NCBI GenBank assembly: GCA_910589075.1
Contig: CAJUSK010000012.1
Location: forward strand, 154,428 to 178,427
DNA length: 24,000 bases
Source of the DNA: an uncultured Lachnospiraceae bacterium
GTDB taxonomy: Bacteria > Bacillota > Clostridia > Lachnospirales > Lachnospiraceae
Direction of reading: 5' to 3'
This document shows positions 1-22,500 of this stretch, piece after piece (within the stretch, counting starts at the first letter, position 1; each line of letters opens with the position of its first letter). The translations under genes were made by a program, and so were the position numbers. The notes beneath the pieces are model-generated. The model did not search any database and had not been told where the DNA came from. It was given only the letters and a program-made list of their open reading frames with translations.

Positions 1-256
1 CTCAGACAGATGTCTGAGGCGCTAATCTACATTATCGCGGTACCACTCAACTTGACCTTTTACAAAAAGGCCCTCTTATTTCATGTACTTCATACATGCC
101 GCATGGATAACGGGTACGGTTCCCGGCAGCGCCTACTTGCATTGACTTACGTTCGGACTGCCCTCGAAAGCCCATTCAGCAAATATCTCCATGCTGCAAT
201 CCCACCATCTGCAGCTCTCTGGTATGGTATCCATTAGCCTACTCCTCTTTCTCACA
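1..256 (-). promoter_or_regulatory. T-box riboswitch leader, probable tryptophan (UGG) specifier. The regulated gene lies beyond the left edge.
   Basis: Minus-strand read shows: K-turn-like UGUGAGAAAG (256-247), a GAGUA element, and the AGAGAG bulge (220-215). It also shows a distal hairpin CUGCA-GAUGGUGGGAU-UGCAG and a specifier-loop pattern GAA-UGG-G followed by CUUUCGAG (177-163). That pattern has the same layout as the glyQS GAA-GGC-A-CUUCGAG. The canonical T-box core GUGGUACCGCG is at 46-36, and the terminator hairpin CUCAGACA/UGUCUGAG (18-1) is cut by the window edge. Confidence 0.85.
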
Positions 257-278
257 GGTTTATTTTTATTTTTTTATT

Positions 279-425: not shown

Positions 426-1304
426 TCATTCAATCGGTTTCAGATAGAAGCCGCCATAAAAATCTTCGGACTTAAATGTATTGATGATCACATGGGGATC
501 TGTCTTGTGCATCAGTTTTGCAATATCCTGGATCTCATAACTGGAAACAACGGTGTGCAGCAGGCTGATTTTCTTGCCGCTGTATCCGCCGATGCCGTCA
601 ACCCTGGAAACGCCATGCCGGTACTCTGCCACATAGGCTTTGATGATCTCATCCGGTTTGGTCGTCGTAACCTGCATGGTCATACGCTCGTACCGGTGAT
701 AGAAAGAATCAATGGTCTTTGTGGAAATAAACTGGAACAAAATGGAGTAACCTGCATACTCCCAGCCAAACATAAATCCGAAAATGGTAATCAACGCTGC
801 ATTAAATACAAAGACATAACTCCAGATGGACTTGCCTTTTTTATTGGAAATATACAGCGCCACAAAATCCACGCCTCCGGTGGACGCGTTGCCTTTCAAT
901 GCGATCACTGTCATAATGCCGTAAGAGAATCCTCCAAAGATCACGTTCAGCAGAACATCGTCAAATAAAGGCGCAAAATTCAGGATCTTCAGAAAAAAGC
1001 TGGCAAAAAATACTTGTAACAGTGAGAAAAAGGTAAAGCGTTTGCTGATACTTTTACTGCACAATATAGCTACCGGAATGTTCAAAACCAGCATGCCCAC
1101 GGAAACGGAAAACGTAAATCCGAAAAATGTGGAGGTGATCTTTTCAACCAGAATGGCAACCCCCGTAAAACCGCTGGAGAGCAGGTTGATCGGATTCATA
1201 AAAATCTGCAGAATCGCTGCCTGCAAAAATCCTGCCACCAGTACACTCGTAAAGGTAATGACATACCGCACTTTTTCATTGCTTCTTAACGTTCGAAAAT
1301 TCAT
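426..1304 (-). CDS. YitT-family membrane protein (with DUF2179-like C-terminal domain)
   Basis: 292-aa ORF with a multi-TM N-terminal part (GFLQAAILQIFMNPINLLSSGFTGVAILVEKI...) and a soluble C-terminal domain typical of YitT proteins. Its ATG overlaps the cutC stop (ATGA at 1301-1304). Confidence 0.85.
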   Translation of the reverse strand: MNFRTLRSNEKVRYVITFTSVLVAGFLQAAILQIFMNPINLLSSGFTGVAILVEKITSTFFGFTFSVSVGMLVLNIPVAILCSKSISKRFTFFSLLQVFFASFFLKILNFAPLFDDVLLNVIFGGFSYGIMTVIALKGNASTGGVDFVALYISNKKGKSIWSYVFVFNAALITIFGFMFGWEYAGYSILFQFISTKTIDSFYHRYERMTMQVTTTKPDEIIKAYVAEYRHGVSRVDGIGGYSGKKISLLHTVVSSYEIQDIAKLMHKTDPHVIINTFKSEDFYGGFYLKPIE

Positions 1305-2041
1305 ATCGTCTCAACCAGCCTCTTCACCAACGCCTCATCTACGATTTCATATGCATCCCTGTGGGGCTGCTCCGTATAGGAGTAGGATACATCCGGCCCG
1401 TTGGTAGTCGGATCGCAAAGCCATCCCTTACAGGAACTGTGTACCTGCCAGATACCGGTCTTTTCCATCAGTTCTGCGGCATTACCCGCATTGACACCAC
1501 TGCCCGCCAAAATCTGTATCCGGTCGCCGTATTTCTTCTGGAGAGCGGCAATCTGCTCCGCGCCATCCATGGCCTTTGCCTTACCGCCGCTGGTGAGAAC
1601 ACGGCAAATTCCCATATCAATCAGCGCTTCCATGGCGCTGTCCTGATCCTGTACACAATCAAATGCCCGATGGAACACGGCCTCTCCGTGGTATCGGTCT
1701 ATAATCTGAACGATCTTTCGTATCTGTGCCTCATGAAGCCTTGCCTGCGCATCCAGACATCCGAAAGCAATGCCGTCAGCGCCGTTTTTCATCAACAGTT
1801 CCGTATCCTGTTCCATCACTTCAAAGTCTGTATCACTGTAACAAAAGCCTGCCGCCCTGGGCCGTACCATCGCCACCACATTCAGATCCGTATGCTTTTT
1901 TGTCAGAAGCAACGTCCCCACAGACGGCGTCAGTCCCCCCAGATACAGCGCACTGTTCAGTTCGATACGCTTTGCACCTCCGCGATAAGCCGCCAGCGCG
2001 TCTTCATAGCTTCCGCAACAGATTTCCACTATTTTTTCCAT
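1301..2041 (-). CDS. cutC: CutC-family protein (copper homeostasis protein CutC, TIM-barrel)
   Basis: 246-aa ORF. The N-terminus MEKIVEICCGSYEDALAAYRGGAKRIELNSALYLGGLTPS matches the CutC family signature. GAGGGTG RBS lies upstream of the ATG. Confidence 0.85.
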   Translation of the reverse strand: MEKIVEICCGSYEDALAAYRGGAKRIELNSALYLGGLTPSVGTLLLTKKHTDLNVVAMVRPRAAGFCYSDTDFEVMEQDTELLMKNGADGIAFGCLDAQARLHEAQIRKIVQIIDRYHGEAVFHRAFDCVQDQDSAMEALIDMGICRVLTSGGKAKAMDGAEQIAALQKKYGDRIQILAGSGVNAGNAAELMEKTGIWQVHSSCKGWLCDPTTNGPDVSYSYTEQPHRDAYEIVDEALVKRLVETI

Positions 2042-2218
2042 ATTGTCACCCTCACGCCTGAATCATTTTCTTTTGTAACAGTTTCGTCAAACAGAACTGT
2101 TACCTGCAAACTCCATTGATCACTGCCTGCGGCAATGGGAGTTTGCACCCATGAATCGTTCACTTGCGGTCTGCCCGGTCAATGTGCAGACCTGATTTCA
2201 GCTTGTTCTATCGTTCCG

Positions 2219-3313
2219 TTAAATTGTCAGCGCAAAGCTGTAAGCCGGTTTGATGCAGTCCAGTAAAAGCTGTTCCCCGCCATCCACATGGCCCACATAA
2301 TTATAGACATCATCCGCTTTTATCTCGCTCAGTACGATCATCAGTTCTCCCGCATAATGTTTCAGATGATCGTTGACAATGATCACATCGCCTCTGGTAA
2401 ACAGTTCCTTGCCGTTTGGCCGGGGCACAATGGATTTGTCTTTATATTCTACTCTGGGCCAGCTTGATCTGACAACCAGTTCATTGCAGTCGTCCCTGGA
2501 CATATGGATATCGCAAGTGATAATCTCTTTTTCTATCTCAGAAATGCCTTCGGCTGCATTCACTTTGATCATAATTTTGCTCAGGTCGGTTTCCGCCATG
2601 GCTTTCAGCTCCGCCTCACTGGCAAAGGCATTGCCGATGAGGAAATCATTGATCAGCCCCATGGCATTCAAATGTCTGAGCTGCAGGTCAATGGGCAGGT
2701 CACGGTGGATCTCCAGTGTGGGAAGCCCGTCATATACTTCCCAGGGCCCATGGGTATGCGGCTCATGACTGGTCACAAAAGCCGCATTATTCAGTCCCAG
2801 CGGCTGATACCAACTGTTCAGCTCCTGCCACCGGGAAAGTCCCATACCCGTATTTCTCTGGGGATAAAAATTACTGCAAAGGCACATATTGCCGCGGTCT
2901 GCGCCCTTTTTGATCATTACGTCCAGCGCCTGGGTGGAGGAAGCATTGTATTCAATCATAATGCCATAGGGATTTTTGGTGATGGCAATATCCTCGGCAT
3001 CACTAAAATGTTCGTCCAGACGGATGATGTCCACATTCATTTCCGCGAAAACGGACAGATCACGCGGCCCTGCGCCCAGTCTTTTAAAAACAGCTCCGTT
3101 TGTATCCACCGATACTTTGAGACCATTCTCATGAGCCACCTTGCAAAACTCTGTAAAGTCCCGTTTGATCGTCTCTTTATCCTCTTCCACGGACAACAGA
3201 CAGGTAAATACGCGCTGAAAACCGTATTTCCCCGCCAGTTTCATATATTCATAGCATTTTTCTCTGGGTGCCCGCTCCGGGTATACAGAGATGCCGAGTC
3301 TTTTCATACTCAA
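2219..3313 (-). CDS. DUF871 / MupG-like protein (putative 6-phospho-glycosidase, TIM-barrel)
   Basis: 364-aa ORF. The N-terminus MKRLGISVYPE... and overall length match the DUF871 family, whose characterised member is S. aureus MupG (6-phospho-N-acetylmuramidase). GGAGGG RBS lies 8 nt upstream. Confidence 0.75.
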   Translation of the reverse strand: MSMKRLGISVYPERAPREKCYEYMKLAGKYGFQRVFTCLLSVEEDKETIKRDFTEFCKVAHENGLKVSVDTNGAVFKRLGAGPRDLSVFAEMNVDIIRLDEHFSDAEDIAITKNPYGIMIEYNASSTQALDVMIKKGADRGNMCLCSNFYPQRNTGMGLSRWQELNSWYQPLGLNNAAFVTSHEPHTHGPWEVYDGLPTLEIHRDLPIDLQLRHLNAMGLINDFLIGNAFASEAELKAMAETDLSKIMIKVNAAEGISEIEKEIITCDIHMSRDDCNELVVRSSWPRVEYKDKSIVPRPNGKELFTRGDVIIVNDHLKHYAGELMIVLSEIKADDVYNYVGHVDGGEQLLLDCIKPAYSFALTI

Positions 3314-3339
3314 ATCCCTCCTGTTTTATTCCAGCTTTA

Positions 3340-3680
3340 TTCCAGTTCCGCTACATTCCGGACAATACCCCTGCTCTGAAAGGTTTTTCCATCCCCTTCG
3401 TGGCTGTAAAATCCTTTCGGGCATTGTCCGGAATTTCGCTGTTTTTATTCCTGTTTTATTCCTGTTCCGCTACATTCCGGACAATGCCTCTGCTCTGAAA
3501 GGTTTTTCCATCCCCTTCGTGGCTGTAAAATCCTTTCGGGCACTGTCCGGAATTCCGCTGTTTTTTTCCAGTTCCGCTACATTCCGGACAATGCCCCTGC
3601 TCTGAAAGGCTTTTCCATCCCCTTCGTGGCTGTAAAATCCTTTCGGGCACTGTCCGGAATTTCGCTGTTTTTGTTCCTGT
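3340..3680 (-). repeat. Three tandem copies (unit starts 3346, 3465, 3572; periods 119 and 107 bp) of a structured intergenic element. Each carries a 78-nt extended hairpin (3356-3433, 3475-3552, 3582-3659).
   Basis: Direct reading shows near-identical units: TTCCGCTACATTCCGGACAATGCCCCTGCTCTGAAAGGYTTTTCCATCCCCTTCGTGGCTGTAAAATCCTTTCGGGCAYTGTCCGGAAT. Structure: 15-bp outer stem (TTCCGGACAATRCCC / GGGCAYTGTCCGGAA), a 7-nt bulge, an 11-bp inner stem (GAAAGGAUUUU / AAAARCCUUUC in minus sense) and a 19-nt apical loop. The array fills the whole gap between the M20 stop (3683) and the MupG-like start (3313). Confidence 0.9.
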
Positions 3681-3682
3681 TT

Positions 3683-4807
3683 TTAATTCTGCTCCAGGCC
3701 ATCTATGAGCTGATGCAGTGCATAAGCATAGATTTGGGTGTTTTTCTCAATGTCACAAATGCGCATCCACTCGTCAGGCATATGGCCGATGCCTTTCTGG
3801 CCTTTGAAGCTGGGGCCAAAGGGTACGATATTTTTCACCACTTTGGCATAGCTGCCGCCGGTGGTGGTCACTGCACTTCCGTCCTCGTGCATGATTTCCT
3901 CATAGACACGTTCCAGGGTTTTGATCAGGTAGGTATCCTTGTCAAAAAAGACGGGATCAATGTTGGAATCCAGAATGAGGATCATATGCTCGCTGCACAG
4001 TTTCCGCAGGGATTCTGTCATCGTCTCCAGCTTATAAGAAGCCGGATAGCTGGAAACCAGTGTCAGGCCGCAACTGTCCGCATCCTCAAACAGTTCAACC
4101 TTGCGCACTTGGTTTTTTCCGAACTCTTCGTCGGAATAGTCGATGCCCAGGCTGGCTGCCAGATCATTTTTGTTGAGAATAAACCGGTTGACAAAGGTAT
4201 AAAGTTCTTCTGTCCTGTCTTTCGGCAGGCTGTAACGGAATGCCGCCCTGCCGCGCTCCGCGTAGATAACCGGATACTTAACATCGGGAGTCCAGCCCAT
4301 CAGGGGATATTTGTGGTCTTTGAAATACCATTTCATATCTTCCATCCCGGTTTCTTCGTTGGTACCGAAAATGATCTTGACACGAATGGGGAATTCATAC
4401 CCCAGATCCATCAATGCCTTTAAGGCATACATACAGCAGAATGTGGGACCCTTATTGTCAAGGACACCTCTTGCATACAGGGTGCCGTCTTTTTCCGTAC
4501 ATACAAAGGGATCCGTCTTCCACACGCCGTCCACATCCACCACATCCAGATGTCCCACACAGGCAATGTAATCTTCCGTGTCGGGGCCGCAGGCTGCAAT
4601 GCCCACCTGATTGCCCACATTCTCGGTCTCGAATCCCAGCCGCCGGGCAATGGCCAGTGCCGCATTGAGGCAGTCTGTCACCCGTTGCCCGTAAGGGTCC
4701 TCCGGTGTGGCTGTATCTTGCCTGGAATCCATACTACAGATTGTTTTGATGTCTTCCACCAGATCCGGAAGCAGCTCACTCACATGGTTTATGATTTTCT
4801 CTTTCAT
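3683..4807 (-). CDS. M20-family metallo-dipeptidase (PepV/Sapep-like, short form)
   Basis: 374-aa ORF with M20 metal/catalytic motifs: GHLDVVD, RGVLDNKGP, GTNEETG and C-terminal GHMPDE. The start is 2 nt after the upstream gene's stop. Confidence 0.8.
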   Translation of the reverse strand: MKEKIINHVSELLPDLVEDIKTICSMDSRQDTATPEDPYGQRVTDCLNAALAIARRLGFETENVGNQVGIAACGPDTEDYIACVGHLDVVDVDGVWKTDPFVCTEKDGTLYARGVLDNKGPTFCCMYALKALMDLGYEFPIRVKIIFGTNEETGMEDMKWYFKDHKYPLMGWTPDVKYPVIYAERGRAAFRYSLPKDRTEELYTFVNRFILNKNDLAASLGIDYSDEEFGKNQVRKVELFEDADSCGLTLVSSYPASYKLETMTESLRKLCSEHMILILDSNIDPVFFDKDTYLIKTLERVYEEIMHEDGSAVTTTGGSYAKVVKNIVPFGPSFKGQKGIGHMPDEWMRICDIEKNTQIYAYALHQLIDGLEQN

Positions 4808-4809
4808 TT

Positions 4810-5763
4810 TTATTCCTCAACCGGTGCCATACGCACGCGCATATATTCTTCCAGCCACTCTTTGGAAGCTTCTTCAAATGTGCAGTGGCCGTCCTCTTCT
4901 CTTGTTACCAGATAGACAATGGGGGGCTGGTCCTGTGTGGCCACGCTGAAGGAAAATCCGCCGATATTGGTAGCACAGCCAAATTCCCCTTTGCAGTTCA
5001 TTGCCACCACCGATAAATCGCCTGCTTCGCCCCGTTTTTCTTTCAGTTTCCGGTCCAGATCGCCAACTGCCTTCTCACATGCCTCCTGGGGTGTCAGTCC
5101 TTCTTTCATCAGACGGACGATCTCATAGGAGATACAGCCTTTCATCAGATCCTCTCCCAGTCCGGTAGCCGTCGCACCACCCACTTCAGAATCCGCATAG
5201 AACCCGGAACCTACGATCGGTGAATCCCCTACACGGCCGCTGCGTTTCATAAACAGGCCGCTGGTGCTGGTAGCCGCTGTCACTGTGCCGGACTGATCCA
5301 GACATACCATGCCCACCGTATCGTGGCCATCATAGGGTTTCAGTTCCTGATCCAGCTCTTTTTTCTTTTTGCGGTAAAAAGCCTTTGCACGGTCAGTCAG
5401 CATTTCCTTTTCCTCGAATTTGCACGCACGGGCGTATTTCTCGGCGCCTGCCCCTACCAGTACATTGTTGACTTTTTCTTCGCTGAGTTTTCTGGCGATG
5501 CTGATGGGGTTTGCAAAATCTTTGATGGCGCCCAGCGCACCCACGCTCATGGTATCACCGTCCATATAGCCGGCATCCAATTCCACGATCTGCTCTTCAT
5601 TGGGCAGCCCGCCATAACCCACTGACTTATAATAAGGGAAGTCCTCCACCGCACGGATGGCAGTCTCGATGGCGCTGCCTGAAGTTTCCCCCTTTTTCAG
5701 CATTTCGTCTGCCAGTTCTATCCCTTCCTTTGCCATCCTCCATGTGGCTATGATTCCATACAT
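4810..5763 (-). CDS. Asparaginase-2 family Ntn hydrolase, glycosylasparaginase-like (N4-(beta-N-acetylglucosaminyl)-L-asparaginase / isoaspartyl peptidase family)
   Basis: 317-aa ORF with N-terminal IIATWRMA, autoprocessing/nucleophile motif GHDTVGMV, and GDSPIVGSGFYAD and GGATATGLGEDLM motifs. GGAGGAA RBS is present. Confidence 0.8.
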   Translation of the reverse strand: MYGIIATWRMAKEGIELADEMLKKGETSGSAIETAIRAVEDFPYYKSVGYGGLPNEEQIVELDAGYMDGDTMSVGALGAIKDFANPISIARKLSEEKVNNVLVGAGAEKYARACKFEEKEMLTDRAKAFYRKKKKELDQELKPYDGHDTVGMVCLDQSGTVTAATSTSGLFMKRSGRVGDSPIVGSGFYADSEVGGATATGLGEDLMKGCISYEIVRLMKEGLTPQEACEKAVGDLDRKLKEKRGEAGDLSVVAMNCKGEFGCATNIGGFSFSVATQDQPPIVYLVTREEDGHCTFEEASKEWLEEYMRVRMAPVEE

Positions 5764-5828
5764 ATCATTTCCTCCTGCCTGATATCATGTTTCCACGGTC
5801 TGCGCAGCAAGTGCGCAGACCTGTATAT

Positions 5829-6902
5829 TTATTTACATTCATTGTTTAATATCCTGTGAAATACCTCATCATCCATGTCCTTTACCAGCTCGCAGATCAG
5901 ACGGATGCAGGCCTCCACATCATCCTCGTGGATCATGCTGTGGTTGGTGTGCATATACCGGATGGGTATGGATAAGGTCATATTGAGGATTCCTTCAAAA
6001 GCCTTGTGTATATTGCCGGAATCCGTACCGCCTTTGTTAAATACCGCATACTGGCAGGGAATATCGTGCTCTTTGCAGATACTTTCCACATACCGCACCA
6101 GTCCTCTGGGCGCTATGGAATTGGAGTCAATCATCGAAAGCACCACACCTTTGCCCAGGCTGCAAATATTATGGTTAGCCGGCGTATCTCCGGCCAATGT
6201 GGTGTCAATGGCGAAGGCAATATCCGGATGCACGGCCTCTGTGGCAGTTCTGGCGCCCCTAAGGCCCGGCTCTTCCTGCACGGTATTGGCCAGGTACAGA
6301 GGGATATGGGCCGTATCTTTCAGCCGCTCTGCAGCCTCTGCCATGATGTAGTTTCCGATTCGATCATCAAAAGCTTTGCAGGAAATATATTTGGGATTGT
6401 TCATCACTTCAAAATGCGCCCAGGGCGCAATCATATCCCCTATAGCAATTCCCATGGAAAGTACTTCTTCCCGGTCTTTCACACCCAGATCCAGATACAC
6501 GTCTTCCATGGAAACAGTCTTGCTGCGAATTTCCTCCGGCAGTCCATGGGTTGCCATGCTGCCCATCAGCGCCGGATATTTCTTTTTATCTTTCGTGACA
6601 ATGGTGTACCACTGCCCCAAAACCATGTGGCTCCACCAGCTTCCCACCGGACGCACCCGGATGAATCCGTTGTCGTCGATGCTCTCCACCATAAAGCCCA
6701 CCTCGTCCATATGGGCGGCAACCATCATCACCGGCCCCCGGGCATCCCTGCATTTGACAGCGACCACGCTGCCCAGTCCATCCTGCATACAGTCGATACC
6801 GAGGCTCTCATACTCTTCTGTCAGGATCCTGCCCACTTCCTGCTCAAAGGAGGAGATCCCGCAGACGGAACATATTTTTTCCAGTCTTTCCAAATTTATC
6901 AT
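5829..6902 (-). CDS. M42-family aminopeptidase (FrvX/YsdC/TET-like), metal ligands intact
   Basis: 357-aa ORF with all expected M42 ligand motifs: AAHMDEVGF, KAFDDRIG, VQEEPGLRGA, AFAIDTT, IRYMHT. Its start overlaps the upstream paralog's stop (6899-6902). Confidence 0.85.
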   Translation of the reverse strand: MINLERLEKICSVCGISSFEQEVGRILTEEYESLGIDCMQDGLGSVVAVKCRDARGPVMMVAAHMDEVGFMVESIDDNGFIRVRPVGSWWSHMVLGQWYTIVTKDKKKYPALMGSMATHGLPEEIRSKTVSMEDVYLDLGVKDREEVLSMGIAIGDMIAPWAHFEVMNNPKYISCKAFDDRIGNYIMAEAAERLKDTAHIPLYLANTVQEEPGLRGARTATEAVHPDIAFAIDTTLAGDTPANHNICSLGKGVVLSMIDSNSIAPRGLVRYVESICKEHDIPCQYAVFNKGGTDSGNIHKAFEGILNMTLSIPIRYMHTNHSMIHEDDVEACIRLICELVKDMDDEVFHRILNNECK

Positions 6903-7921
6903 CTATTGTCACCCAGTCCGAACCCTGCAATTTTTTCAGAATCAATGGTATCCAGATATGCAGCCAGGCTCTCTGTCAATGCGTCCACATCCCCGGCCCT
7001 GCAAATCTCGTTGGCGCTGCCCATATGATCCATGGCTACACCGACACTGATCGCCGGCGTCCCTTTTAATGTCTTATGGATAAAAGAACCGTCATTTCCC
7101 GTAATTCCAAAATAAGGTTTTGTCTCTGTCTTTCCTGCAAAATCATGTAACAGAGACTGTGCGGGAAGCATCTGGCGGTCATAATATCCCAGAATCACGC
7201 CGTCCCCTGTGTTTGCTTTTCTTTTCGCTGTGTCAAACGCTGTCAGGGCAATGGCTGCATCCGGCCGGATTACATAAGTCGCTGTTTTCGTTCCTCTGAA
7301 CCCGATGACAGACTGCGCAATACAGCCCACTGCCAGATGGAAATCAAATTCTGTATCCTTTATCCGTTCCAGCAGTTCCAATGTCACTTCATTAAATATC
7401 CTGGGGAACAGTGCCTTCGACATGATAATCCCGTCTCTCTCACAAAATGCACTGGCATATCCCACCAGATCGCCGGGATGAACGCGTTCTTTCAGTTCTT
7501 CATAAGGAATACCGCAGGTGATAAATAAGTCATCCGCATTTTTCGCCTCACAGGAATCTTCCAGCGTTTTTTTGTCCATACCGATCACACCGTCGATACA
7601 GGTATCCTCTCTCGTCAGAATACGCACACGCTGATGCAGCAGGGAGCTGCATGCCAGATGTTCCAGCGGAATAAAGGAAACAGTCCCTTCCTTCTTCACC
7701 TCTGAAACCATCAGCCCCACTTCGTCCAGAGGGGAAGCGATCATAAAAGTCTGTGCATTTGGATTTTTTGATTTCTTAATCGCAAAGAGCGATCCCAGAC
7801 GGTCACACCGTATCTCATCACATAAGGGTTCATAACTCTCACGGAGTATTTTGGAAATCCCATGCTCCGCGCTGCTGACCCCGAAACTGTTACATAGTTT
7901 TTCTAATCTGCCTGTGTTCAT
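6899..7921 (-). CDS. M42-family paralog with substituted metal-ligand positions (probable non-catalytic subunit)
   Basis: Collinear with the downstream M42 protein (LEKLCNSFGVSSAE vs LEKICSVCGISSFE; PLDEVGLMV vs HMDEVGFMV), but ligand motifs are replaced. Start chosen at ATG 7921 (MNTGRLEKL, aligns with MINLERLEKI; AGGAGAGG RBS). A longer ORF to 7957 is possible but would include a strong hairpin. Confidence 0.7.
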   Translation of the reverse strand: MNTGRLEKLCNSFGVSSAEHGISKILRESYEPLCDEIRCDRLGSLFAIKKSKNPNAQTFMIASPLDEVGLMVSEVKKEGTVSFIPLEHLACSSLLHQRVRILTREDTCIDGVIGMDKKTLEDSCEAKNADDLFITCGIPYEELKERVHPGDLVGYASAFCERDGIIMSKALFPRIFNEVTLELLERIKDTEFDFHLAVGCIAQSVIGFRGTKTATYVIRPDAAIALTAFDTAKRKANTGDGVILGYYDRQMLPAQSLLHDFAGKTETKPYFGITGNDGSFIHKTLKGTPAISVGVAMDHMGSANEICRAGDVDALTESLAAYLDTIDSEKIAGFGLGDNR

Positions 7922-7941
7922 ACCTCTCCTTTTTGAAAAGA

Positions 7942-7982
7942 CCGCCGCAAAATCCATTTTACGAAAAATCCTTTTGCGGCGG
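7942..7982 (-). terminator. Candidate partial terminator/attenuator hairpin between the GrdB-like and M42-like genes
   Basis: 11-bp stem CCGCCGCAAAA / TTTTGCGGCGG with a 19-nt loop. In minus sense it is followed by TCTTTTC. The loop is large and the U-tract is interrupted, so function is uncertain. Confidence 0.3.
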
Positions 7983-8003
7983 CACTTTTAAAATTTTATA
8001 TAC

Positions 8004-8528
8004 TTAATAGCAAACCCGATTGCGGACATTCTCAAGTTCTGCTGACTGCTCTACCATGCATTTCATAAACTCGCACAAATCCGCAAAGCTGTCATTCAAA
8101 CCGGTACCGCCCTTTTTCGGCATTTTCAGTATAGGCGTTTTGTCTTTGAATGCCGCGATGGTATCTCCGTTCTCAACAGACATCATGGCACAAGACTTGA
8201 TATCGGTGTTTTCCAGAATCGAAGTGGAAATCATGGCAGCCATCCGTGCATAATCCGGATAGTTGAAGCAAGGCCCGCACAAAACGAAGTCCGGATTTAC
8301 CTTTTTAGCCATTGCTGTCATCTTTTTCACTACTTCTTCTTCATTGTTCTGAAAATACTCATTGCCACAGTACAGCGTAGCTGCAACCTGCGCTCCGATT
8401 TTTTCAAAATGCGGCTCCAGCATCAGGGAGGAACCAATCCCGCCTTTCACGGCAGTCAGGCCCACGTTCGGATTGGATTTTCCACCGGCCCCTGCCAGAC
8501 CCTGATCAAAAATCAATACAACTTTCAT
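8004..8528 (-). CDS. GrdB N-terminal-domain-like protein (glycine/sarcosine/betaine reductase component B family, short stand-alone form)
   Basis: 174-aa ORF. From memory of GrdB N-termini, MKVVLIFDQGLAGAGGK..., ATLYCGNEYFQNNEEEV and NPDFVLCGPCFNYPDY resemble VVHYINQFFAGIGGEEKAD, VICGDSYFNEN and PDLFIAGPAFNAGRYG. AGGAGG RBS is present. Confidence 0.6.
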   Translation of the reverse strand: MKVVLIFDQGLAGAGGKSNPNVGLTAVKGGIGSSLMLEPHFEKIGAQVAATLYCGNEYFQNNEEEVVKKMTAMAKKVNPDFVLCGPCFNYPDYARMAAMISTSILENTDIKSCAMMSVENGDTIAAFKDKTPILKMPKKGGTGLNDSFADLCEFMKCMVEQSAELENVRNRVCY

Positions 8529-8561
8529 ATTCAGCCTCCTGTTATTTCAGGTGGATTGTCA

Positions 8562-9914
8562 TTAATCCAGTTCCAGATCGTCAAAGGACAGATCATCCAG
8601 TTCATCCGTCTCATTGCCTGCTGCACTTTCTTCCTGCACATATCTCTGATCCAGCAGTTTGAAGAATGGATAATAGATGAGGATATCCACCGCCAGCATC
8701 ACAATCTGGACCACAGAGCCCATGACGGAACCTGTTACCAGGAATCCGGAGAAGATAATCGGACAGGTCCATGGCAACTGGACACCCAGCGTAATCGGCA
8801 TAATCCCCGTTACCGTAGCCAGATAGCCGATAATCGTATTTACAACCGGTGCAAAGATAAACGGAACTGCCATCAATGGGTTCAACACAATCGGCAGACC
8901 AAAAATAAGCGGCTCATTGATACCGAAAATTCCGGCCGGCAGTGACAGTCTGCCCAGAGTTTTCATACGGTTGGACTTTCCAAGGAAGGCCATCATGATA
9001 ACAAGGCCCAGTGTGGAACCGCCGCCACCGAAGTTGCAGAAGAAATCCGAGAAACCTGCAGTGAAGATATTGGTCATTTCCAGACCTGCCTGTGCAGCTT
9101 CATAGTTTTCAACTGTCAGCACTTTATGGATCGGGCTGAAGATCGTATTGGTTACAGCCGGTCCGTTGATACCGAAGAACCAGAACAGTGTGGAGAGGAA
9201 CTGGTAAATTACCTCGAATCCGGACAGTTTGCCCAGACCCACCAGTGGCGTCTGCAGTACTTTGTAAATGAAATAATGTACATATTCGAAGGATGTATGA
9301 TCGAAAATAATACCTACAACAAAGAATATTGTCATCGCTATGGCAGAAGGAATCAGGGAAGCAAACGATTCCATAACCATAGGCGGCACACCGTCGGGCA
9401 AACGGATAATCAATTTCTTCTTAATCGCCCATGCATAAATCTCTACGGACAAAATTGCCGTGAGCATTGCCAGGAACATACCTGCAGTACCCAGGAATGT
9501 AAACTGGAATCCGCTGAAAGATGCCGCTTCTGCTGCCCCTTCCAGTTCCACGAATGTTTTCTGAGGCGTAATAATCAGGAAACATACCATTGCCACCACG
9601 CCGCCGGCGATACGGTTTTCCAGCCCTTTTTCTCTGGCATAACAGTACCCGATACTCAATACGCCGAGGAGTGCCACACAGTCAAATGCTATAGCGGATA
9701 CTCTGCCCAGATATGCGTCCCAGCCTTCTCCGAATATGGAAGTCATCATATTCAGAAAACCTTCCAGCGGGAAGTTGGAAATCAACAGGAAAATCGAACC
9801 TACAATGGTGATCGGAACCGTAACCAAAAAGCCGTCACGGATAGCGATCAGTATCTTGTTCCTGGAGAGCACATTCGCAATGGGCATCAGGATTTTTTCA
9901 AGTTTCTGCATCAT
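8562..9914 (-). CDS. PTS EIIC, lactose/cellobiose (chitobiose) family
   Basis: 450-aa polytopic membrane ORF. The N-terminus MQKLEKILMPIANVLSRNKILIAIRDGF is typical of CelB/ChbC-type EIIC. It has an unusual acidic C-terminal tail (ETDELDDLSFDDLELD). Confidence 0.9.
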   Translation of the reverse strand: MMQKLEKILMPIANVLSRNKILIAIRDGFLVTVPITIVGSIFLLISNFPLEGFLNMMTSIFGEGWDAYLGRVSAIAFDCVALLGVLSIGYCYAREKGLENRIAGGVVAMVCFLIITPQKTFVELEGAAEAASFSGFQFTFLGTAGMFLAMLTAILSVEIYAWAIKKKLIIRLPDGVPPMVMESFASLIPSAIAMTIFFVVGIIFDHTSFEYVHYFIYKVLQTPLVGLGKLSGFEVIYQFLSTLFWFFGINGPAVTNTIFSPIHKVLTVENYEAAQAGLEMTNIFTAGFSDFFCNFGGGGSTLGLVIMMAFLGKSNRMKTLGRLSLPAGIFGINEPLIFGLPIVLNPLMAVPFIFAPVVNTIIGYLATVTGIMPITLGVQLPWTCPIIFSGFLVTGSVMGSVVQIVMLAVDILIYYPFFKLLDQRYVQEESAAGNETDELDDLSFDDLELD

Positions 9915-9917
9915 AAC

Positions 9918-10241
9918 TTATTTTCCTCTACTTTCTTTGTACAGCTTCATCGCTTTCTTTAAAACTCTCTCGCCATCCACATTGCCGTAGTCGGTACTGT
10001 CAATGACCGATACCACATGCTCCTGACCATACTTCTCGTTCACTTTGTCGTAGAGATGTTTTACCTGCGGCCCCAACAAAATCACTTCCGGATTGAACTC
10101 ATTTACGATGTCGTTCATCTGTGCGTCGGAAAATGCCTTGATCTCGATGGGCAGTTCATGCGCATCCGCAGTTTTCTGCATTTTGCTTGCCAGCAAACTG
10201 GTGGACATACCTGCGTTGCAGAATAAATAGAATCTTTTCAT
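9918..10241 (-). CDS. PTS EIIB, lactose/cellobiose family
   Basis: 107-aa ORF with the active-site Cys context FYLFCNAGMSTSLL. AGGAGGAA RBS is present. Confidence 0.9.
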   Translation of the reverse strand: MKRFYLFCNAGMSTSLLASKMQKTADAHELPIEIKAFSDAQMNDIVNEFNPEVILLGPQVKHLYDKVNEKYGQEHVVSVIDSTDYGNVDGERVLKKAMKLYKESRGK

Positions 10242-10260
10242 GGTGTTTTCCTCCTTTCCC

Positions 10261-10569
10261 TCATTTCACCTTTTTATACAGTTCGATCAGTTCCACAGCC
10301 AGTAACTTGATCGTCTCTGCCGCCATCAACTGGTCCTCGGCATGCATGAGCAGGAGACATACTTCTGTCTTCTCTCCGCCTGCCTCTTTTGTGATCAGTT
10401 CCGCATGCTGTTTGTGTCCGTTCAAATAACATGCCTCTCCGTGTTTGATTGCCTCTTCTGCTTTTTCGTAATCTCCCTTTTTTGCAGCTTCCAGAGCAGA
10501 GATATAATCACTCTTTGCCTCCCCTACCGCAGAGATGATCTTAAAACAGATCAGTTCCATTTCTTCCAT
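10261..10569 (-). CDS. PTS EIIA, lactose/cellobiose family
   Basis: 102-aa helical ORF. ISAVGEAKSDYISALEAAKKGDYEKAEEAIKHGEACYLNGHKQHAELI is typical of the LacF/ChbA family, including the phosphorylatable His region. GGAGGAA RBS is present. Confidence 0.9.
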   Translation of the reverse strand: MEEMELICFKIISAVGEAKSDYISALEAAKKGDYEKAEEAIKHGEACYLNGHKQHAELITKEAGGEKTEVCLLLMHAEDQLMAAETIKLLAVELIELYKKVK

Positions 10570-10587
10570 ATTGTCTTCCTCCTTATA

Positions 10588-11187
10588 TTATAATTGTGTA
10601 TAATTTGTTTCGCTCTCTTTGCCACATACCACCTGGCTGTCTGACCAGAGATCATGAACCGCTTTTCCTTTTTTGAATACCATCCAGACAGAAATCAGAA
10701 ATGCCCCGAGCATCAGGTAATTCAGCGCATTTCCAATGGCCCCTGCCGTCAGCATGGTAACCATCTGCGTCGCATACTGGCCCGTCAGCATAAACGAGCT
10801 TTCCAGTATCATAATCCCCACAATCTGCCTGACTGCAAGCCGGCCGGCCGGAAGCGCCCCGCCATCCTCACCGACAATCCGGATATTCATCAACCGCTTT
10901 CCAAATGTCTGGCCCTTCCATATTTTGAGCGGAACCACATAGTAGTAAGCAGCTCCAAACAAGAGTCCAAGCAATCCCGCAAGCCAGCCCCATGGCGCTT
11001 CAAACAGAGTCACATCGGTATTGATTGCCGTTTCACCAGTCTGCATATTCCACAGAATCCCTACCGGGACGGCACTGAATGCCGATCCAAGATACCAGTC
11101 CAGTAAAAAAGCAAATCCCCTTCTGTTCAGCGGAGCCGGTATCACTTTCGGTGCGGCTTTGTCAGTCCTGTTTTTCTTCATATCCAT
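10588..11187 (-). CDS. RDD-family integral membrane protein
   Basis: 199-aa ORF (197 aa if the start is ATG 11181, which has better RBS spacing). It has the RDD-domain pattern NRRGFAFLLDWYL...GQTFGKRLMNIRIV...VHDLWSD and 3-4 predicted TM segments. Confidence 0.7.
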   Translation of the reverse strand: MDMKKNRTDKAAPKVIPAPLNRRGFAFLLDWYLGSAFSAVPVGILWNMQTGETAINTDVTLFEAPWGWLAGLLGLLFGAAYYYVVPLKIWKGQTFGKRLMNIRIVGEDGGALPAGRLAVRQIVGIMILESSFMLTGQYATQMVTMLTAGAIGNALNYLMLGAFLISVWMVFKKGKAVHDLWSDSQVVCGKESETNYTQL

Positions 11188-11193
11188 CCTCTG

Positions 11194-13140
11194 TCATTCT
11201 ATTAAACCCACAAATTCACTCGCTGTTTTTGCCTTCATAATCTTTGACAAAAGAAGCGTGTCATCACTTAAATTACCCAGCCAGTCAAAAAATATTTTCA
11301 GAAGTTCCCGCTCGTCATCCCTGACAGCCAAAAGCAGTACCAGACGCACCTGATACTCTCCCCACTGCACAGGCTTTTTCAATATGGCAATGCCCATCGT
11401 CGACCTGATGGCCGAATAATTCAACGCATGAGGAATCGCATACCCGTAACTGAAGGAGGTAAATGCCATCTTTTCCCTTGCAAATGTGGAATCTTTGAAA
11501 CTTTCTTCCACACGTTCCCCCTCATACAGCCGGTCACACATATAGCTGACCACATCCTGCCAGGTATCGCATTCCAGATTATGAAAATAGTACTCTTCCA
11601 TAATCAGACATTTGATAAAATTATCAAATTCCGTTTTATAATGTCTCTGATCCAGTTCCGTTATCGCCCTGAATATCTTATACTCATCGCTGGTGTTCAC
11701 AAACATACTGATGGAAATCATCGGTATATCCAGCTTGTGGGAAAGGGGGATTGTCGAAATAATCAGATCCGGATGGAGACTCTCAATGACTGACGCCTCG
11801 TAATATTTCAATATCCCGTCGATTACAATCCGTTCTCCAAAACGTTCCAGTATCTTATCACTGCACGCCCCTGTGAGGGTACTGCTGTTGGGCTGGATCA
11901 GTACCACATGATAAAAGTACTTGATATTCAGCCGGTCATACGCCGCACCCAGATGGATTGCCAAAAAACCGATCTCATCTTCCGAAACAGAACTGCCCGT
12001 ATATTCCTTGATCACATGACCGATAAAAACACTCATTTCAAACACAAGCGGGTATGTCTTTTTAATCTCCGCCAGGCAGACATTGGAAACAACCGCCTTA
12101 TAGCGAATCCTCTCCAGAAGATTTTGCAGATGCAGGACAATACCATCCTTGAAAATTATGTCACCGGAAAAATCAATGTCATACCGCAGACGGACCGTAC
12201 TGATAATCTTCAGCATCAGTTCTTCCGCCTGTACCAGATACTCCCCTTTGTTATCGAACAGGGTGCTCCTCTGTCTTCCAATCAAAAGATTGGCAAAGAG
12301 GACCACTTCATTTTCATTCAGTTCAAAACAGAGAGTCGCGGTCACTCTGGCAAAAAATTCCATGGCAATCCTGTATTCCAGTGTATCCCTGATTTCACTC
12401 CGGCATCTGTTTGTTTCCACATAGTTGTAATTCATCATCCGCTGGATGGAAACCCCTACGTGGATCATCAGCATGGGAAAAGTCTCCTCACGCACCCGGT
12501 AGCTGTACTTGCCCAGAATTTCTTCCAGAACATTTTTCACCCTGATCAGATCAAAATTCGGAAACAGTTCATCTATTTTATTGATATTGATAAAATTGCC
12601 TTTGGTTTCGTTGGCAAGCAGATCTTTGTAAACAGAACGCTTGCACTCTTCGCTTCCTCTGATATAAATGTGGCTGTCGGTTCTGACCAGCTCCACACCA
12701 TCGTACTTCTCCAGCATTTCGGAAACTTTTTTCATATCATTTTTGATGGTAAACTCGCTGACATAAATATCATATTGCAAGTCAAAAATATTCAGCTTCC
12801 GGGTACTGAAAAGCAGTTTCTCAATAATATATTTGCACCGTTCTTCCGAAGTCTGCGGAATACTTTCTCTCTGCGGAGCGCTGCCCTGTCCGGAACTGCT
12901 CTTTTCGGATATCTCCTGATTGATCCGATATCCGTAGCGCACGCTGGATTCTATCAGCCCACTGCACTCCTTTCTCAGCATTTCCATATCGTTGCGAATG
13001 GTGCGATCCGAAACACTCAGCATTGTGGATAACTCTTTTCCGGTGATCCAACCCTTTTTCTCGTTTAAAATCTCAAGGATTCTTTTCTGTCTCGCTTGCA
13101 TGTGTCTATTATACATGATATGTTTCCCGATTTTTTCCAT
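11194..13140 (-). CDS. PRD-domain transcriptional regulator of the LicR/MtlR/BglG class (HTH + 2 PRD + EIIB-like + EIIA-Mtl/Fru-like domains)
   Basis: 648-aa ORF with an N-terminal HTH (RQKRILEILNEKKGWITGKELSTMLSVSDRTIRNDMEML) and PRD His contexts (MLMIHVGVSIQR, FLAIHLGAAYDR). The C-terminal EIIA-type-2 motif is GYAIPHA. The stop is 6 nt before the RDD gene. Confidence 0.85.
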   Translation of the reverse strand: MEKIGKHIMYNRHMQARQKRILEILNEKKGWITGKELSTMLSVSDRTIRNDMEMLRKECSGLIESSVRYGYRINQEISEKSSSGQGSAPQRESIPQTSEERCKYIIEKLLFSTRKLNIFDLQYDIYVSEFTIKNDMKKVSEMLEKYDGVELVRTDSHIYIRGSEECKRSVYKDLLANETKGNFININKIDELFPNFDLIRVKNVLEEILGKYSYRVREETFPMLMIHVGVSIQRMMNYNYVETNRCRSEIRDTLEYRIAMEFFARVTATLCFELNENEVVLFANLLIGRQRSTLFDNKGEYLVQAEELMLKIISTVRLRYDIDFSGDIIFKDGIVLHLQNLLERIRYKAVVSNVCLAEIKKTYPLVFEMSVFIGHVIKEYTGSSVSEDEIGFLAIHLGAAYDRLNIKYFYHVVLIQPNSSTLTGACSDKILERFGERIVIDGILKYYEASVIESLHPDLIISTIPLSHKLDIPMISISMFVNTSDEYKIFRAITELDQRHYKTEFDNFIKCLIMEEYYFHNLECDTWQDVVSYMCDRLYEGERVEESFKDSTFAREKMAFTSFSYGYAIPHALNYSAIRSTMGIAILKKPVQWGEYQVRLVLLLAVRDDERELLKIFFDWLGNLSDDTLLLSKIMKAKTASEFVGLIE

Positions 13141-13143: not shown

Positions 13144-13164
13144 ATTTCCTAACAGATAGGAAAT
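13144..13164. promoter_or_regulatory. Perfect 8-bp inverted repeat ATTTCCTA-N5-TAGGAAAT overlapping the regulator's RBS
   Basis: Read directly from the sequence. The 3' arm (minus sense) contains the AGGAAA Shine-Dalgarno-like sequence 4 nt from ATG 13140. It could be an operator or an RBS-sequestering hairpin. Confidence 0.35.
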
Positions 13165-13192
13165 TTACTGCGTGAAAATAGTCAGTTTTGCA

Positions 13193-13241
13193 CAAAAGAA
13201 GGAGATATTTCCTTTCTCTGCGGAAATATCCCCTTCTTTTC
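13193..13241 (-). terminator. Rho-independent terminator after the anti-sigma gene (bidirectional in form)
   Basis: 16-bp stem AGAAGGGGATATTTCC / GGAAATATCTCCTTCT (one G-U) with a 9-nt loop, followed by TTTTG in minus sense. It separates the sigma operon from the PTS regulator. Confidence 0.7.
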
Positions 13242-13354
13242 TATATCAGAACTGCATAAAACGGTGGTAATCATTTTGTGAAGTTTATTATAAGCGGTTG
13301 TCAGCTACGCGGCAGTCTCTTATTCTCTCTGTCACAGACCGCCGGAGAATGGCT

Positions 13355-14725
13355 TCAGGAAACGGGCACTTCCAACTCTTTACTGTACAACGATTTTTCC
13401 TTTACATATTGCAGAAAGTCTGCTTCATCCCGATGGGATAACAGGTCCTCTTTCCACACATCAAACAGGCAGATGCAAACAGTCATCCGGTTGACAGCAT
13501 GATCCCCAATGGGCAAAACGGAAACATCGCCTGATCCATTCTCCATCCGGTTCCCCTGCGCGTCAAACACAATGGGAATACAATCCATACCGCCATCCGC
13601 ATAATCCACGGACACTTCAAAGGGCGTAACGTTTATCGTATGCAGCCCCACGCCTTGTTCATTCACCTCTTCCACTGTCACCGCATAATTTCCCGATTCG
13701 TTCACAGACACGGGTATCGTAAAATCCCAGGGACCTTCAAACCAGTAATGCTCAGCCCGATTGGGATACTGATCCATTCCATATTCTTTCATCTTTTCAT
13801 CATACAACGCCTGAAATGCTTCATCCGACATACCTTTCAGTTCTTCCTCACTGACACCCCAGTCTATCTTTTCCGGCTCTGCCAGATCGCCCACAATTTT
13901 TTCCAGATGAATTTCCACTGTGAATTCTTCTGGCAGAGTCAGTTTTTCGGTGTGACTGCGAATCATCTCATCCGTAATGACCACTTCCTCCCCCGATGCT
14001 TCTGCCTTTGCAACTATTTTTTCAAGTTCAGAGTCATCCACCAATACACTGTCAAGACGGATCCGCCAGATACCGGCAAATGTCCGCTCATCCAGAAAAG
14101 TACCTTCCAGATCCTTATCCCCCACGTAAGGATCCTGCGCCCGGAAGGAAAACAGGCTGGAAGCTGCCAGGGACAGGTACTGCCTGCCATCCACATTTTT
14201 CATAATCTTATCCGCAAAAGGTTCCTGGCTTTCCACCAGCATGGATATGCTGAGACTTTCCTGATTACAATACACTTCTGACAGTGTTACCGTGACATCC
14301 CCTACAGTCTGCGTATAAGTCAAAGACGGATCTTCTGCTGTTGTCTCTTCGTCAGATTCCAAAACCGGATCTTCCAGAGGCTGGGCATAGCCTTCATAAT
14401 CTCCTGGATATTCCGATGTCTTCTGCAGCATGGAAAAAATTCGTCCGATGACAGGTATTTTTGCCGCCAACACCGGATTGGCGGAACAGATTCCCAAAAA
14501 CAGCAGCATAAAGGCCGCTGCCGCTGTGGCGGCTTTCACCCATACGGGAACTTTTTTCTTCTGAGATTTCTTCCGTGTGTTCTTCTGTTCTTCTTTCATC
14601 TTATCCTTCTCCTTATGGCTTTCTGACAGTATCTGTTCAAAAGCCGCATCTGCTTTTTGTGTAACAATCGCAGGGAGTTCAATATCCTGTCGGAAAGCTG
14701 AACATATTTTTTCATTTTGATTCAT
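13355..14725 (-). CDS. DUF4179-type anti-sigma factor (single-pass membrane protein with a large extracytoplasmic domain)
   Basis: ORF directly coupled to the ECF sigma gene (ATGA overlap at 14722-14725). It has a short cytoplasmic N-terminus, a Lys-rich segment, a TM helix (VWVKAATAAAAFMLLFLGICSANPVLA) and a ~370-aa external domain. The track ORF starts 2 codons earlier (14731). Confidence 0.7.
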   Translation of the reverse strand: MNQNEKICSAFRQDIELPAIVTQKADAAFEQILSESHKEKDKMKEEQKNTRKKSQKKKVPVWVKAATAAAAFMLLFLGICSANPVLAAKIPVIGRIFSMLQKTSEYPGDYEGYAQPLEDPVLESDEETTAEDPSLTYTQTVGDVTVTLSEVYCNQESLSISMLVESQEPFADKIMKNVDGRQYLSLAASSLFSFRAQDPYVGDKDLEGTFLDERTFAGIWRIRLDSVLVDDSELEKIVAKAEASGEEVVITDEMIRSHTEKLTLPEEFTVEIHLEKIVGDLAEPEKIDWGVSEEELKGMSDEAFQALYDEKMKEYGMDQYPNRAEHYWFEGPWDFTIPVSVNESGNYAVTVEEVNEQGVGLHTINVTPFEVSVDYADGGMDCIPIVFDAQGNRMENGSGDVSVLPIGDHAVNRMTVCICLFDVWKEDLLSHRDEADFLQYVKEKSLYSKELEVPVS

Positions 14726-18882: not shown

Positions 18883-18902
18883 GTCTTCAACCTCCGTTCT
18901 TT

Positions 18903-22368: not shown

Positions 22369-22500
22369 GAATCTTCTCCTTCTTTTATCAGATTTTGCAC
22401 AGACAGCCCTGCCGGATACGGCAGAGCTTGATTTCTGTGACTCTATCTGCAAGGGATGCCAGAGCATCCCCCAGATATCCGTAATACTTATATGTGTCAG

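Follow-up and report, generated by a model that had tools for sequence, protein, structure and literature searches.

A gene cluster of gut Clostridia that probably serves phosphotransferase-dependent uptake and breakdown of N-acetylglucosaminyl-asparagine

What would a glycosylasparaginase gene do between the genes of a sugar phosphotransferase system (PTS) and a set of peptidase genes? The question is raised by thirteen genes in a 24,000-nucleotide (nt) stretch of DNA (the window) from an uncultured Lachnospiraceae bacterium (assembly GCA_910589075.1, contig CAJUSK010000012.1). The thirteen open reading frames (ORFs) lie on the minus strand from 13140 to 426, where a first reading of the letters alone (the sequence-only reading) had placed them, and their coordinates bear out its statement that all are co-directional. 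The profile searches it had proposed assigned all 13 proteins to named Pfam or NCBIfam families above the curated cut-offs. The cluster most likely encodes the form that the PTS-dependent pathway for N-acetylglucosaminyl-asparagine (GlcNAc-Asn) takes in Clostridia; this compound is the stub that remains when N-glycoproteins are digested. The roles of the accessory genes are individually much less certain. PTS-dependent uptake and breakdown of a glycosyl-asparagine had been proposed by the sequence-only reading. This proposal now appears well supported by the scores and residues of the glycosylasparaginase, by the conserved order of a core of genes, and by a parallel with the ega locus of Enterococcus faecalis.

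The glycosylasparaginase, here called Asg, is a 317-residue N-terminal nucleophile (Ntn) hydrolase. Against structures in the PDB, it scored 185 bits with the Elizabethkingia glycosylasparaginase and 126 bits with the best other entry, from the isoaspartyl peptidases. The equivalents of the catalytic and substrate-binding residues W8, H-D-T149, R177, and D180 are all kept. Close homologues carry the NCBI name N(4)-(beta-N-acetylglucosaminyl)-L-asparaginase, and the enterococcal protein of an ega-like locus is 55% identical to Asg. No signal peptide was found in Asg. By these comparisons, the protein is nearer to true glycosylasparaginases than to isoaspartyl peptidases, and the corresponding activity is predicted; the identity first given to it has held, the two PDB scores favoring it.

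The same family leaves room for another substrate. Asparaginase_2 includes isoaspartyl peptidases, the cluster holds many peptidase genes, and the catabolism of fructose-asparagine in Salmonella uses an asparaginase. The locus could accordingly serve beta-aspartyl (isoaspartyl) peptides or glycated (Amadori) asparagine, and not GlcNAc-Asn from N-glycans. However, Asg reached 122 bits on the beta-aspartyl-peptidase equivalog model, the cut-off of which is 567 bits. No deglycase, SIS-domain, or kinase genes were present in the cluster, and a PTS of the lactose/cellobiose (Lac/Cel) family implies a beta-glycoside substrate. We consider this explanation highly improbable.

A GlcNAc-Asn pathway running through a PTS could present Asg with a phosphorylated sugar. 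The basic residues R9, K46, R125, K/R174, and R217 showed little or no variation among 70 PTS-linked cytoplasmic Asg proteins, unlike in 13 secreted homologues; R9 adjoins the sugar-stacking Trp. These residues could bind the 6-phosphate, or they could be a mere lineage signal, as the PTS-linked group is phylogenetically coherent. We take them as a lead only.

The enzyme II components (EIIA, EIIB, and EIIC) connect Asg to a characterized system. EIIC shares 52% identity with its counterpart in the ega-like locus of E. gallinarum, and it is probably a permease for GlcNAc-Asn, that is, for a glyco-amino acid. For E. faecalis, PMC11976118, citing Combret et al. 2023, describes a GlcNAc-L-Asn PTS of the cellobiose family with CelA1 as its EIIA. 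The locus, egaRP / egaGBCD1D2 (Combret et al. 2023, Res Microbiol 175:104169), is taken here as given by the citing papers PMC11976118 and PMC11549559. According to PMC11549559, in strain OG1RF it comprises a GntR regulator (10933), a dipeptidase (10934), EgaG (10935), and then Lac/Cel EIIB and EIIC, together with a pseudogene for a putative, GrdB-like oxidoreductase. OG1RF_10938-39 (egaD1/D2) are a split GrdB-like pseudogene and not M42 genes. The sequence-only reading had stated that no PTS-based pathway of this kind was described. In view of the E. faecalis system, this statement is out of date, and the functional inference matches a characterized system.

As far as the citing papers describe it, the E. 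faecalis locus likewise has a cytoplasmic glycosylasparaginase, adjacent Lac/Cel EIIB and EIIC, an M20 dipeptidase (EgaP), and a GrdB-related gene (EgaD). The locus in E. gallinarum also shares an M42 pair and a flanking YitT gene with the window; apart from EIIC, the identities to its proteins are 55% for Asg, 37% for the GrdB-like protein, 40% and 28% for the M42 proteins, and 32% for M20. The differences are equally clear. The window cluster has an EIIA of its own, whereas E. faecalis borrows CelA1 (PMC11976118). RDD, CutC, YitT, and glycoside hydrolase family 170 (GH170) genes are added, M20 lacks about 60 residues relative to its enterococcal counterpart, and everything stands on one strand in a single array. 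The basic pathway is therefore already known (E. faecalis, 2023); what is new here is the variant's regulator type, its own EIIA, RDD, CutC-YitT, the active/pseudo M42 pair, and the GH170 enzyme.

Conservation of the cluster was assessed in a scan of species-representative genomes, which matched more than 560 relatives. The counts rest on the best 80 (68–97% identity), onto which the 13 window proteins were mapped by tblastn; enough flank was available upstream in 66 loci and downstream in 69. The hosts of the best 80 were Lachnospiraceae (Enterocloster, Hungatella, and Lachnoclostridium), Erysipelotrichaceae, Coprobacillaceae, Clostridium, Peptacetobacter, and Agathobaculum. Upstream of Asg, EIIB was found in 54 of the 66 loci, EIIC and the GrdB-like gene in 53 each, EIIA in 52, and the regulator in 47, followed by RDD (31/66) and the M42 pair (11/66). 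Downstream, CutC was present in 67 of the 69 loci, M20 in 65, YitT in 56, and MupG, within 5 kb, in 17. The core order recurred in about 80% of the 80 genomes, and the M42 pair in only about 15 of them. The genes flanking the cluster, for an extracytoplasmic function (ECF) sigma factor and an anti-sigma factor, recurred only in contigs of the same species. The cluster itself was found in identical form in one Lachnospiraceae metagenome-assembled genome and in many gut metagenome contigs.

Since the core genes recur in most loci while the flanks of the window do not, the conserved unit is regulator-(RDD)-EIIA-EIIB-EIIC-GrdB-like-Asg-M20-CutC-YitT. The M42 pair and MupG are additions restricted to particular clades. 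MupG stands before the regulator in Enterocloster and after YitT in Lachnoclostridium, and it occupies the M20-CutC interval only in the clade of the window. The sequence-only reading had treated the thirteen genes as one cluster; this stands for the core order and fails for the M42 pair and the mobile MupG gene. The neighborhood comparison across Clostridia and Lactobacillales that it had suggested gave the same picture, with the core kept in Lachnospiraceae, Erysipelotrichaceae, Clostridium, Peptacetobacter, Enterococcus, and Lactobacillaceae and with variable flanks. The E. gallinarum locus reads YitT-GntR-M20 / Asg-EIIC-GrdB-like-M42-M42, and a further relative of the Lactobacillales type reads GntR-M20 / Asg-EIIB-EIIC-EIIA. 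In Latilactobacillus sakei and a Lactiplantibacillus genome, the order is Asg-GntR-GrdB-like-EIIC-M20. In all of these loci, Asg is about 55% identical to that of the window. The minimal set across the Firmicutes is glycosylasparaginase, Lac/Cel EIIC, the GrdB-like protein, and M20. With relatives in so many genomes, the PTS route is common among gut Clostridia and Erysipelotrichia, and host-glycoprotein scavenging by this route reaches well beyond the enterococci. The conserved extra genes offer testable contexts for CutC, the GrdB-like family NF041545, YitT, and the M42 genes in PTS operons.

Some loci departed from this order. Several Erysipelotrichaceae carry Asg-M20-CutC(-YitT) with no PTS adjacent; in Beduini this group stands behind TrkH/TrkA. 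One Hungatella locus reads GntR-Asg-M20-CutC and continues with genes for MatE-family and MFS transporters. Two metagenome-assembled genomes labeled Firmicutes/Erysipelotrichaceae (L010 and L011) hold the full window-type cluster, M42 pair and MupG included, with 84–85% identity in Asg; in both, an additional RDD-like gene separates EIIA from EIIB. The cluster was either transferred horizontally into these two, or the genomes were wrongly binned or labeled.

The conservation data also bear on a simpler explanation, a PTS operon of the usual kind for chitobiose or beta-glucosides. The PTS and the MupG-like enzyme would then serve a simple disaccharide, and the genes for the asparaginase and the peptidases would be neighbors without a functional tie. 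EIIC does reach 391 bits on the cellobiose/lactose IIC model, and the GH170 enzyme ChbE is described as working in chitobiose use by Lacticaseibacillus (L.) paracasei (PMC12791066). Moreover, CelA1 of E. faecalis is reported to serve the uptake of chitobiose, cellobiose, and GlcNAc-Asn alike (PMC11976118). However, EIIC falls under the cellobiose equivalog cut-off, and EIIC, the GrdB-like gene, Asg, and M20 stay adjacent from Lactobacillaceae to Lachnospiraceae, MupG being the least conserved gene. The equivalent E. faecalis locus is, in addition, reported as a GlcNAc-Asn PTS. An ordinary disaccharide operon is therefore very improbable.

A second known system is the alf-2 operon of L. casei for fucosyl-GlcNAc-Asn (Becerra et al. 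2020, PMC6960285). It likewise pairs a glycosylasparaginase (AsnA2) with a PepV-type M20 peptidase, both intracellular, and its substrate is a glyco-amino acid of the N-glycan core. It differs in having the MFS permease AlfH, the GH29 fucosidase AlfC, the ROK kinase SugK, and AsdA; the families of AlfH, AlfC, and SugK were found neither among the 13 genes nor in the rest of the window. Conversely, alf-2 is without a PTS, a GrdB-like gene, CutC, M42, or GH170.

The peptidase genes required a revision. The sequence-only reading had counted three peptidase-family genes whose products trim the peptide. The families agree (M42, M42, and M20), but one M42 protein (7957-6899), termed M42a, is of an inactive type. 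In the alignment, none of the five metal-ligand positions checked keeps its residue, and the catalytic Glu is substituted as well (H→P, DD→FP, EE→SV, D→T, and H→G); 13 species share these substitutions. Having lost these residues, M42a cannot trim peptides. M42b, in contrast, keeps its two-metal site and catalytic Glu, with the ligands retained in all species compared; its best PDB match was 1VHE (274 bits), and it scored 270 and 237 bits on two NCBIfam models of enterobacterial M42 aminopeptidases, both under the equivalog cut-offs. Trimming would fall to M42b and M20, whose ligands are intact. The first M42 protein of the E. gallinarum pair (L085 11896-12960) is also partly degenerate (DD→NG, EE→EQ, and H→N). 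M42a is a conserved pseudo-peptidase, presumably a structural partner of M42b, and the degenerate first member in both loci suggests an active/inactive hetero-oligomer. The PTS operons of E. coli with frvX, sgcX, and ypdE likewise have M42 genes embedded in them; these operons lack a glycosylasparaginase, whereas the M42 genes here form an active/inactive pair.

M20 is a shortened relative of PepV. In the alignment with PepV (1LFW), about 100 residues of the lid are deleted, and the length of 374 residues was constant in all strains compared. A frameshifted pseudogene with a remnant in the adjacent 369-nt gap was considered and ruled out, because the gap is a tandem repeat, the length is kept, and the metal ligands are intact.

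MupG contains both MupG_N and MupG_C, as expected for its family, and it matched PDB entry 1X7F with 267 bits. Translation probably begins with the ATG at 3307, which is also the start in the gene call of locus L001. For the GH170 enzyme ChbE of L. paracasei, PMC12791066 implicates a role as 6-phospho-chitobiose hydrolase, which makes a role of the MupG-like enzyme on chitobiose-bearing substrates plausible. In S. aureus MurP-MupG and in the L. paracasei chb system, a MupG-family enzyme likewise stands behind a PTS and is expected to cleave a 6-phospho-beta-1,4-linked N-acetylhexosamine disaccharide. The window differs in the partner genes and, relative to S. aureus, in the PTS family; its MupG gene is an insertion peculiar to the clade, with structured intergenic DNA on either side.

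The only characterized MupG-family member is a 6-phospho-N-acetylmuramidase (PMC6262408, as described in PMC12791066), and peptidoglycan recycling has to be weighed for this reason. The PTS would then import MurNAc-GlcNAc (N-acetylmuramyl-N-acetylglucosamine) or muropeptides, MupG would cleave the 6-phospho-disaccharide, the peptidases would break down the stem peptide, and the Ntn hydrolase would cut a beta-aspartyl (D-iso-Asx) cross-bridge. The best point for it comes from one Bulleidia genome (L014), in which the genes for PTS EIIC, MupG, GH1, a BadF-type ATPase, an RpiR (RpiR/SIS) regulator, and AnmK are followed by Asg-CutC-YitT. However, Asg is more glycosylasparaginase-like than beta-aspartyl-peptidase-like, and its relatives are reported as experimentally established GlcNAc-Asn hydrolases (PMC6960285 and PMC11549559). 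MupG is missing from most of the related loci. Furthermore, the Pfam and NCBIfam assignments revealed neither a MurQ etherase nor a glucose-family MurP among the cluster genes, and MurP of S. aureus is described as a PTS of the glucose and not the Lac/Cel family (PMC6262408). Peptidoglycan recycling is thus very improbable. The glycosylasparaginase signature, the deep conservation of EIIC-GrdB-like-Asg-M20, and the E. faecalis data weaken all three alternatives to the GlcNAc-Asn pathway.

Among the accessory genes, cutC was the tightest partner of Asg in Clostridia and Erysipelotrichia, as its downstream count indicates. CutC proteins form a TIM-barrel family conserved from bacteria to humans. 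On NF008603, the equivalog model for E. coli CutC, the window protein scored 163 bits (cut-off 311). The copper phenotype of E. coli cutC is attributed in PMC4102768 to the small RNA MicL and not to the CutC protein, the function of which the authors urge to re-examine.

The Asg-CutC pairing might be due to lineage inertia, and it was tested on metagenome contigs encoding signal-peptide-bearing Asg homologues 34–41% identical to that of the window. Among 59 such loci for which 1 kb or more of downstream sequence was available, the taxonomy of which was inferred from GC content and neighbor genes only, CutC lay directly downstream of Asg on the same strand in 27 and elsewhere in the locus in 8 more. 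The GC content of the Asg-CutC loci ranged from 30% to 69%. Homologues of the PTS, M20, GrdB-like, and YitT proteins were not detected in these environmental Asg loci, and no signal peptide was found in their CutC proteins. Enzymes of the N-glycan core flank the pair in two annotated loci, one reading GH20-Asg-CutC-GH2 mannosidase-like and the other ROK kinase-Asg-CutC-two GH29 fucosidases. The environmental loci, probably from Bacteroidota and others, thus share the position and strand of CutC with the window and differ in the signal peptide of Asg and in their GH20, GH2 beta-mannosidase-like, GH29, and ROK kinase neighbors. Examples of the pair are found at L125 5968-7670 and L103 6001-7707.

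From this synteny we infer that CutC acts in the GlcNAc-Asn pathway; among the papers searched, none pairs CutC with a glycosylasparaginase or aspartylglucosaminidase. That it processes the glycosylamine product, 1-amino-GlcNAc or its 6-phosphate, is speculation. A fuller proposal is that CutC is a dedicated glycosylamine-hydrolyzing enzyme and the M42 pair trims PTS-imported phospho-glycopeptides, the two supplying missing steps in the breakdown of Asn-linked GlcNAc. We regard it as tentative and rather doubtful. If true, the trimming would for the first time offer a reason why PTS operons such as those of frvX, sgcX, and ypdE contain M42 genes. The function of CutC has been open since its copper phenotype was reassigned in 2014, and the cross-phylum pairing with Asg suggests a substrate that can be assayed.

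The following pathway can be proposed for the cluster. N-glycoprotein digestion universally ends in GlcNAc-Asn, and extracellular endoglycosidases and proteases would leave it bare or still carrying extra residues or another GlcNAc. The Lac/Cel EIIA-EIIB-EIIC system would import the glyco-amino acid, perhaps also short glycopeptides or chitobiosyl-Asn, and phosphorylate the sugar at C6. M42b, probably in complex with the inactive M42a, and the short PepV-like M20 would strip flanking residues; this would free the alpha-amino and alpha-carboxyl groups of Asn, as glycosylasparaginases require. Cytoplasmic Asg would then release L-aspartate and 1-amino-GlcNAc(-6-P), which would break down to GlcNAc(-6-P) plus ammonium on its own or with the aid of CutC; non-enzymatic decay is what PMC6960285 assumes for 1-amino-GlcNAc. 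If the imported substrate has a chitobiose unit, the GH170 MupG-like enzyme would split the 6-phospho-GlcNAc-beta-1,4 linkage. The activator with PTS regulation domains (PRD) probably switches on expression under PTS phosphorylation, coupling it to PTS flux. The GrdB-like, RDD, and YitT proteins would be conserved accessories with no step in this scheme.

Several points weigh against this pathway. All that is known of the source organism is a metagenome-assembled genome. Neither the M42 pair nor MupG belongs to the conserved core, and the three structured gaps described below might split separate transcription units. The regulator is an HTH-Mga-PRD-PRD-EIIA_2 activator, whereas that of ega is the GntR repressor EgaR; GntR genes are present in the Lactobacillales Asg loci. 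Finally, pepV was dispensable in L. casei (PMC6960285) and OG1RF has only a pseudogene in place of the GrdB-like gene, which implies that several members may be non-essential or serve other substrates.

The GrdB-like protein illustrates the last point. It adjoins EIIC and Asg across the Firmicutes generally, yet OG1RF, in which it is a pseudogene, is a strain with recorded ega expression data. It is therefore probably a conserved accessory, not essential for the core pathway. The protein covers profile positions 2-160 of 347, that is, the N-terminal half of GrdB only. Selenoprotein B itself has about 430 residues and its selenocysteine in the C-terminal half, unlike the 174-residue protein here. 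The AlphaFold2 model (mean confidence score, pLDDT, of 96) is a generic three-layer alpha/beta domain. A Foldseek search of the PDB with this model returned nothing with E < 1e-3, only generic alpha/beta folds with template modeling (TM) scores of 0.5 or less. The motifs DQxQAGxGG, TLYCG, and MPKKGGxGL are invariant. As some loci have this gene or EIIB and not the other, a role as a substitute EIIB was considered; it was not supported, no EIIB being among the top 50 Foldseek matches.

The coordinates of the genes and of the structured elements are collected in the table.

Table 1. Genes of the cluster in transcription order, with the structured elements of its gaps and its upstream boundary (window coordinates; aa, amino acids; bp, base pairs; TRF, Tandem Repeats Finder).
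Feature	Coordinates	Strand	Evidence and remarks
Upstream boundary, intrinsic-terminator-like	13191-13240	-	19-bp-stem hairpin, then UUCUUUUGUG; end of the preceding ECF sigma/anti-sigma operon
PTS-controlled activator, LicR/MtlR type	11194-13140	-	Pfam HTH_11, Mga, two PRD, EIIA_2
RDD-family small membrane protein	10588-11187	-	Pfam RDD, 66 bits
PTS EIIA, Lac/Cel family	10261-10569	-	Pfam PTS_IIA, 109 bits; His motif MHAEDQ intact
PTS EIIB, Lac/Cel family	9918-10241	-	Pfam PTS_IIB; Cys motif FCNAGMSTS intact
PTS EIIC, Lac/Cel family	8562-9914	-	TIGR00410, 391 bits
GrdB-related protein without selenocysteine, 174 aa	8004-8528	-	NF041545 GrdB_like_no_Se, 232 bits, cut-off 175
M42a, M42-fold pseudo-peptidase	6899-7957	-	Pfam M42, 123 bits, full length
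M42b, intact M42 aminopeptidase	5829-6902	-	Pfam M42, 309 bits; start overlaps M42a by 4 nt
Palindromic hairpin, perfect 10 bp	5797-5821	.	M42b-Asg gap (65 nt); no U-tract on the transcribed strand
Asg, predicted cytoplasmic glycosylasparaginase, 317 aa	4810-5763	-	Asparaginase_2, Ntn hydrolase; autoprocessing at H-D-T149
M20, PepV/Sapep-like dipeptidase, lid-shortened	3683-4807	-	TIGR01887, 290 bits in two stretches; metal ligands intact
Tandem repeat, 3 x 119-nt unit	3324-3683	.	Fills the M20-MupG gap (369 nt); TRF score 569
MupG, putative GH170/MupG-family 6-phospho-beta-glycosidase	2219-3313	-	Pfam MupG_N 251 bits, MupG_C 102 bits
Structured 177-nt gap	2042-2218	-	Contains three hairpins; a weak site resembling a promoter (2090-2062) precedes cutC
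CutC-family TIM-barrel protein	1301-2041	-	Pfam CutC, 198 bits
YitT-family membrane protein with DUF2179	426-1304	-	Pfam; start overlaps cutC by 4 nt

In transcription order, the junctions from the regulator to M42b measure 6, 18, 19, 3, 33, and 46 nt, followed by a 4-nt overlap, and those from M42b to YitT measure 65, 2, 369, and 177 nt, again followed by a 4-nt overlap. The sequence-only reading had described junctions of 2-46 nt or overlaps except at three structured gaps, and no canonical terminator inside the cluster. Both descriptions proved correct. The 65-, 369-, and 177-nt gaps folded more stably than shuffled sequence (z = -2.95, -7.0, and -3.5, respectively). None of the three contains a U-tract after a hairpin. 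A terminator scan gave 16 sites against 12.2 ± 4.2 by chance and none on the minus strand within the gaps. The missing U-tracts and the chance-level count rule these gaps out as terminators. They coincide exactly with the borders of the clade-specific genes, one at the 3′ end of the M42 module and the other two flanking MupG.

In the repeat of the 369-nt gap, about 80 nt of each 119-nt unit form a hairpin (-47 kcal/mol, z = -7). The unit occurs three times in the window and in L001, once in strain L002, and in none of the other fetched loci, which come from other species. It may be an RNA processing or stability element, or an insertion scar. The hairpins 2168-2192 and 5797-5821, from different gaps, have common 7-nt arm ends (GGTCTGC...GCAGACC). 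No such pair is expected by chance, and it is confined to the species of the window; the two may constitute a small element resembling repetitive extragenic palindromes at the module boundaries.

Within the cluster, a Pfam scan of the antisense ORFs gave no match, nor did defense-system models against the unassigned proteins. The region 13150-13290 around the upstream terminator folds with -37 kcal/mol (z = -5.4), and the hairpin and U-tract at 13240-13191 insulate the cluster from the ECF sigma/anti-sigma pair. The latter (13355-15243) encodes a sigma factor of 173 residues and a DUF4179 anti-sigma-like protein of 458 residues. On the other side, a T-box leader (12-264, minus strand, 115 bits) has the apparent specifier UGG (Trp). 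Its counterpart in L001 (15500-15752) precedes a 33-residue ORF and an ABC transporter (PF04392 binding protein, permease, and ATPase). The T-box was ruled out as a component of the system, given its apparent Trp specifier and the ABC transporter it leads. Farther upstream, a 673-residue protein (15518-17539; 575 residues in the L001 and L002 gene calls) has a weak leucine-rich-repeat match as its sole match, and a Na/Ca-exchanger-family protein is encoded at 17914-18906. A GH36 alpha-galactosidase gene and two ABC permease genes (20179-23981) probably serve the use of melibiose or raffinose.

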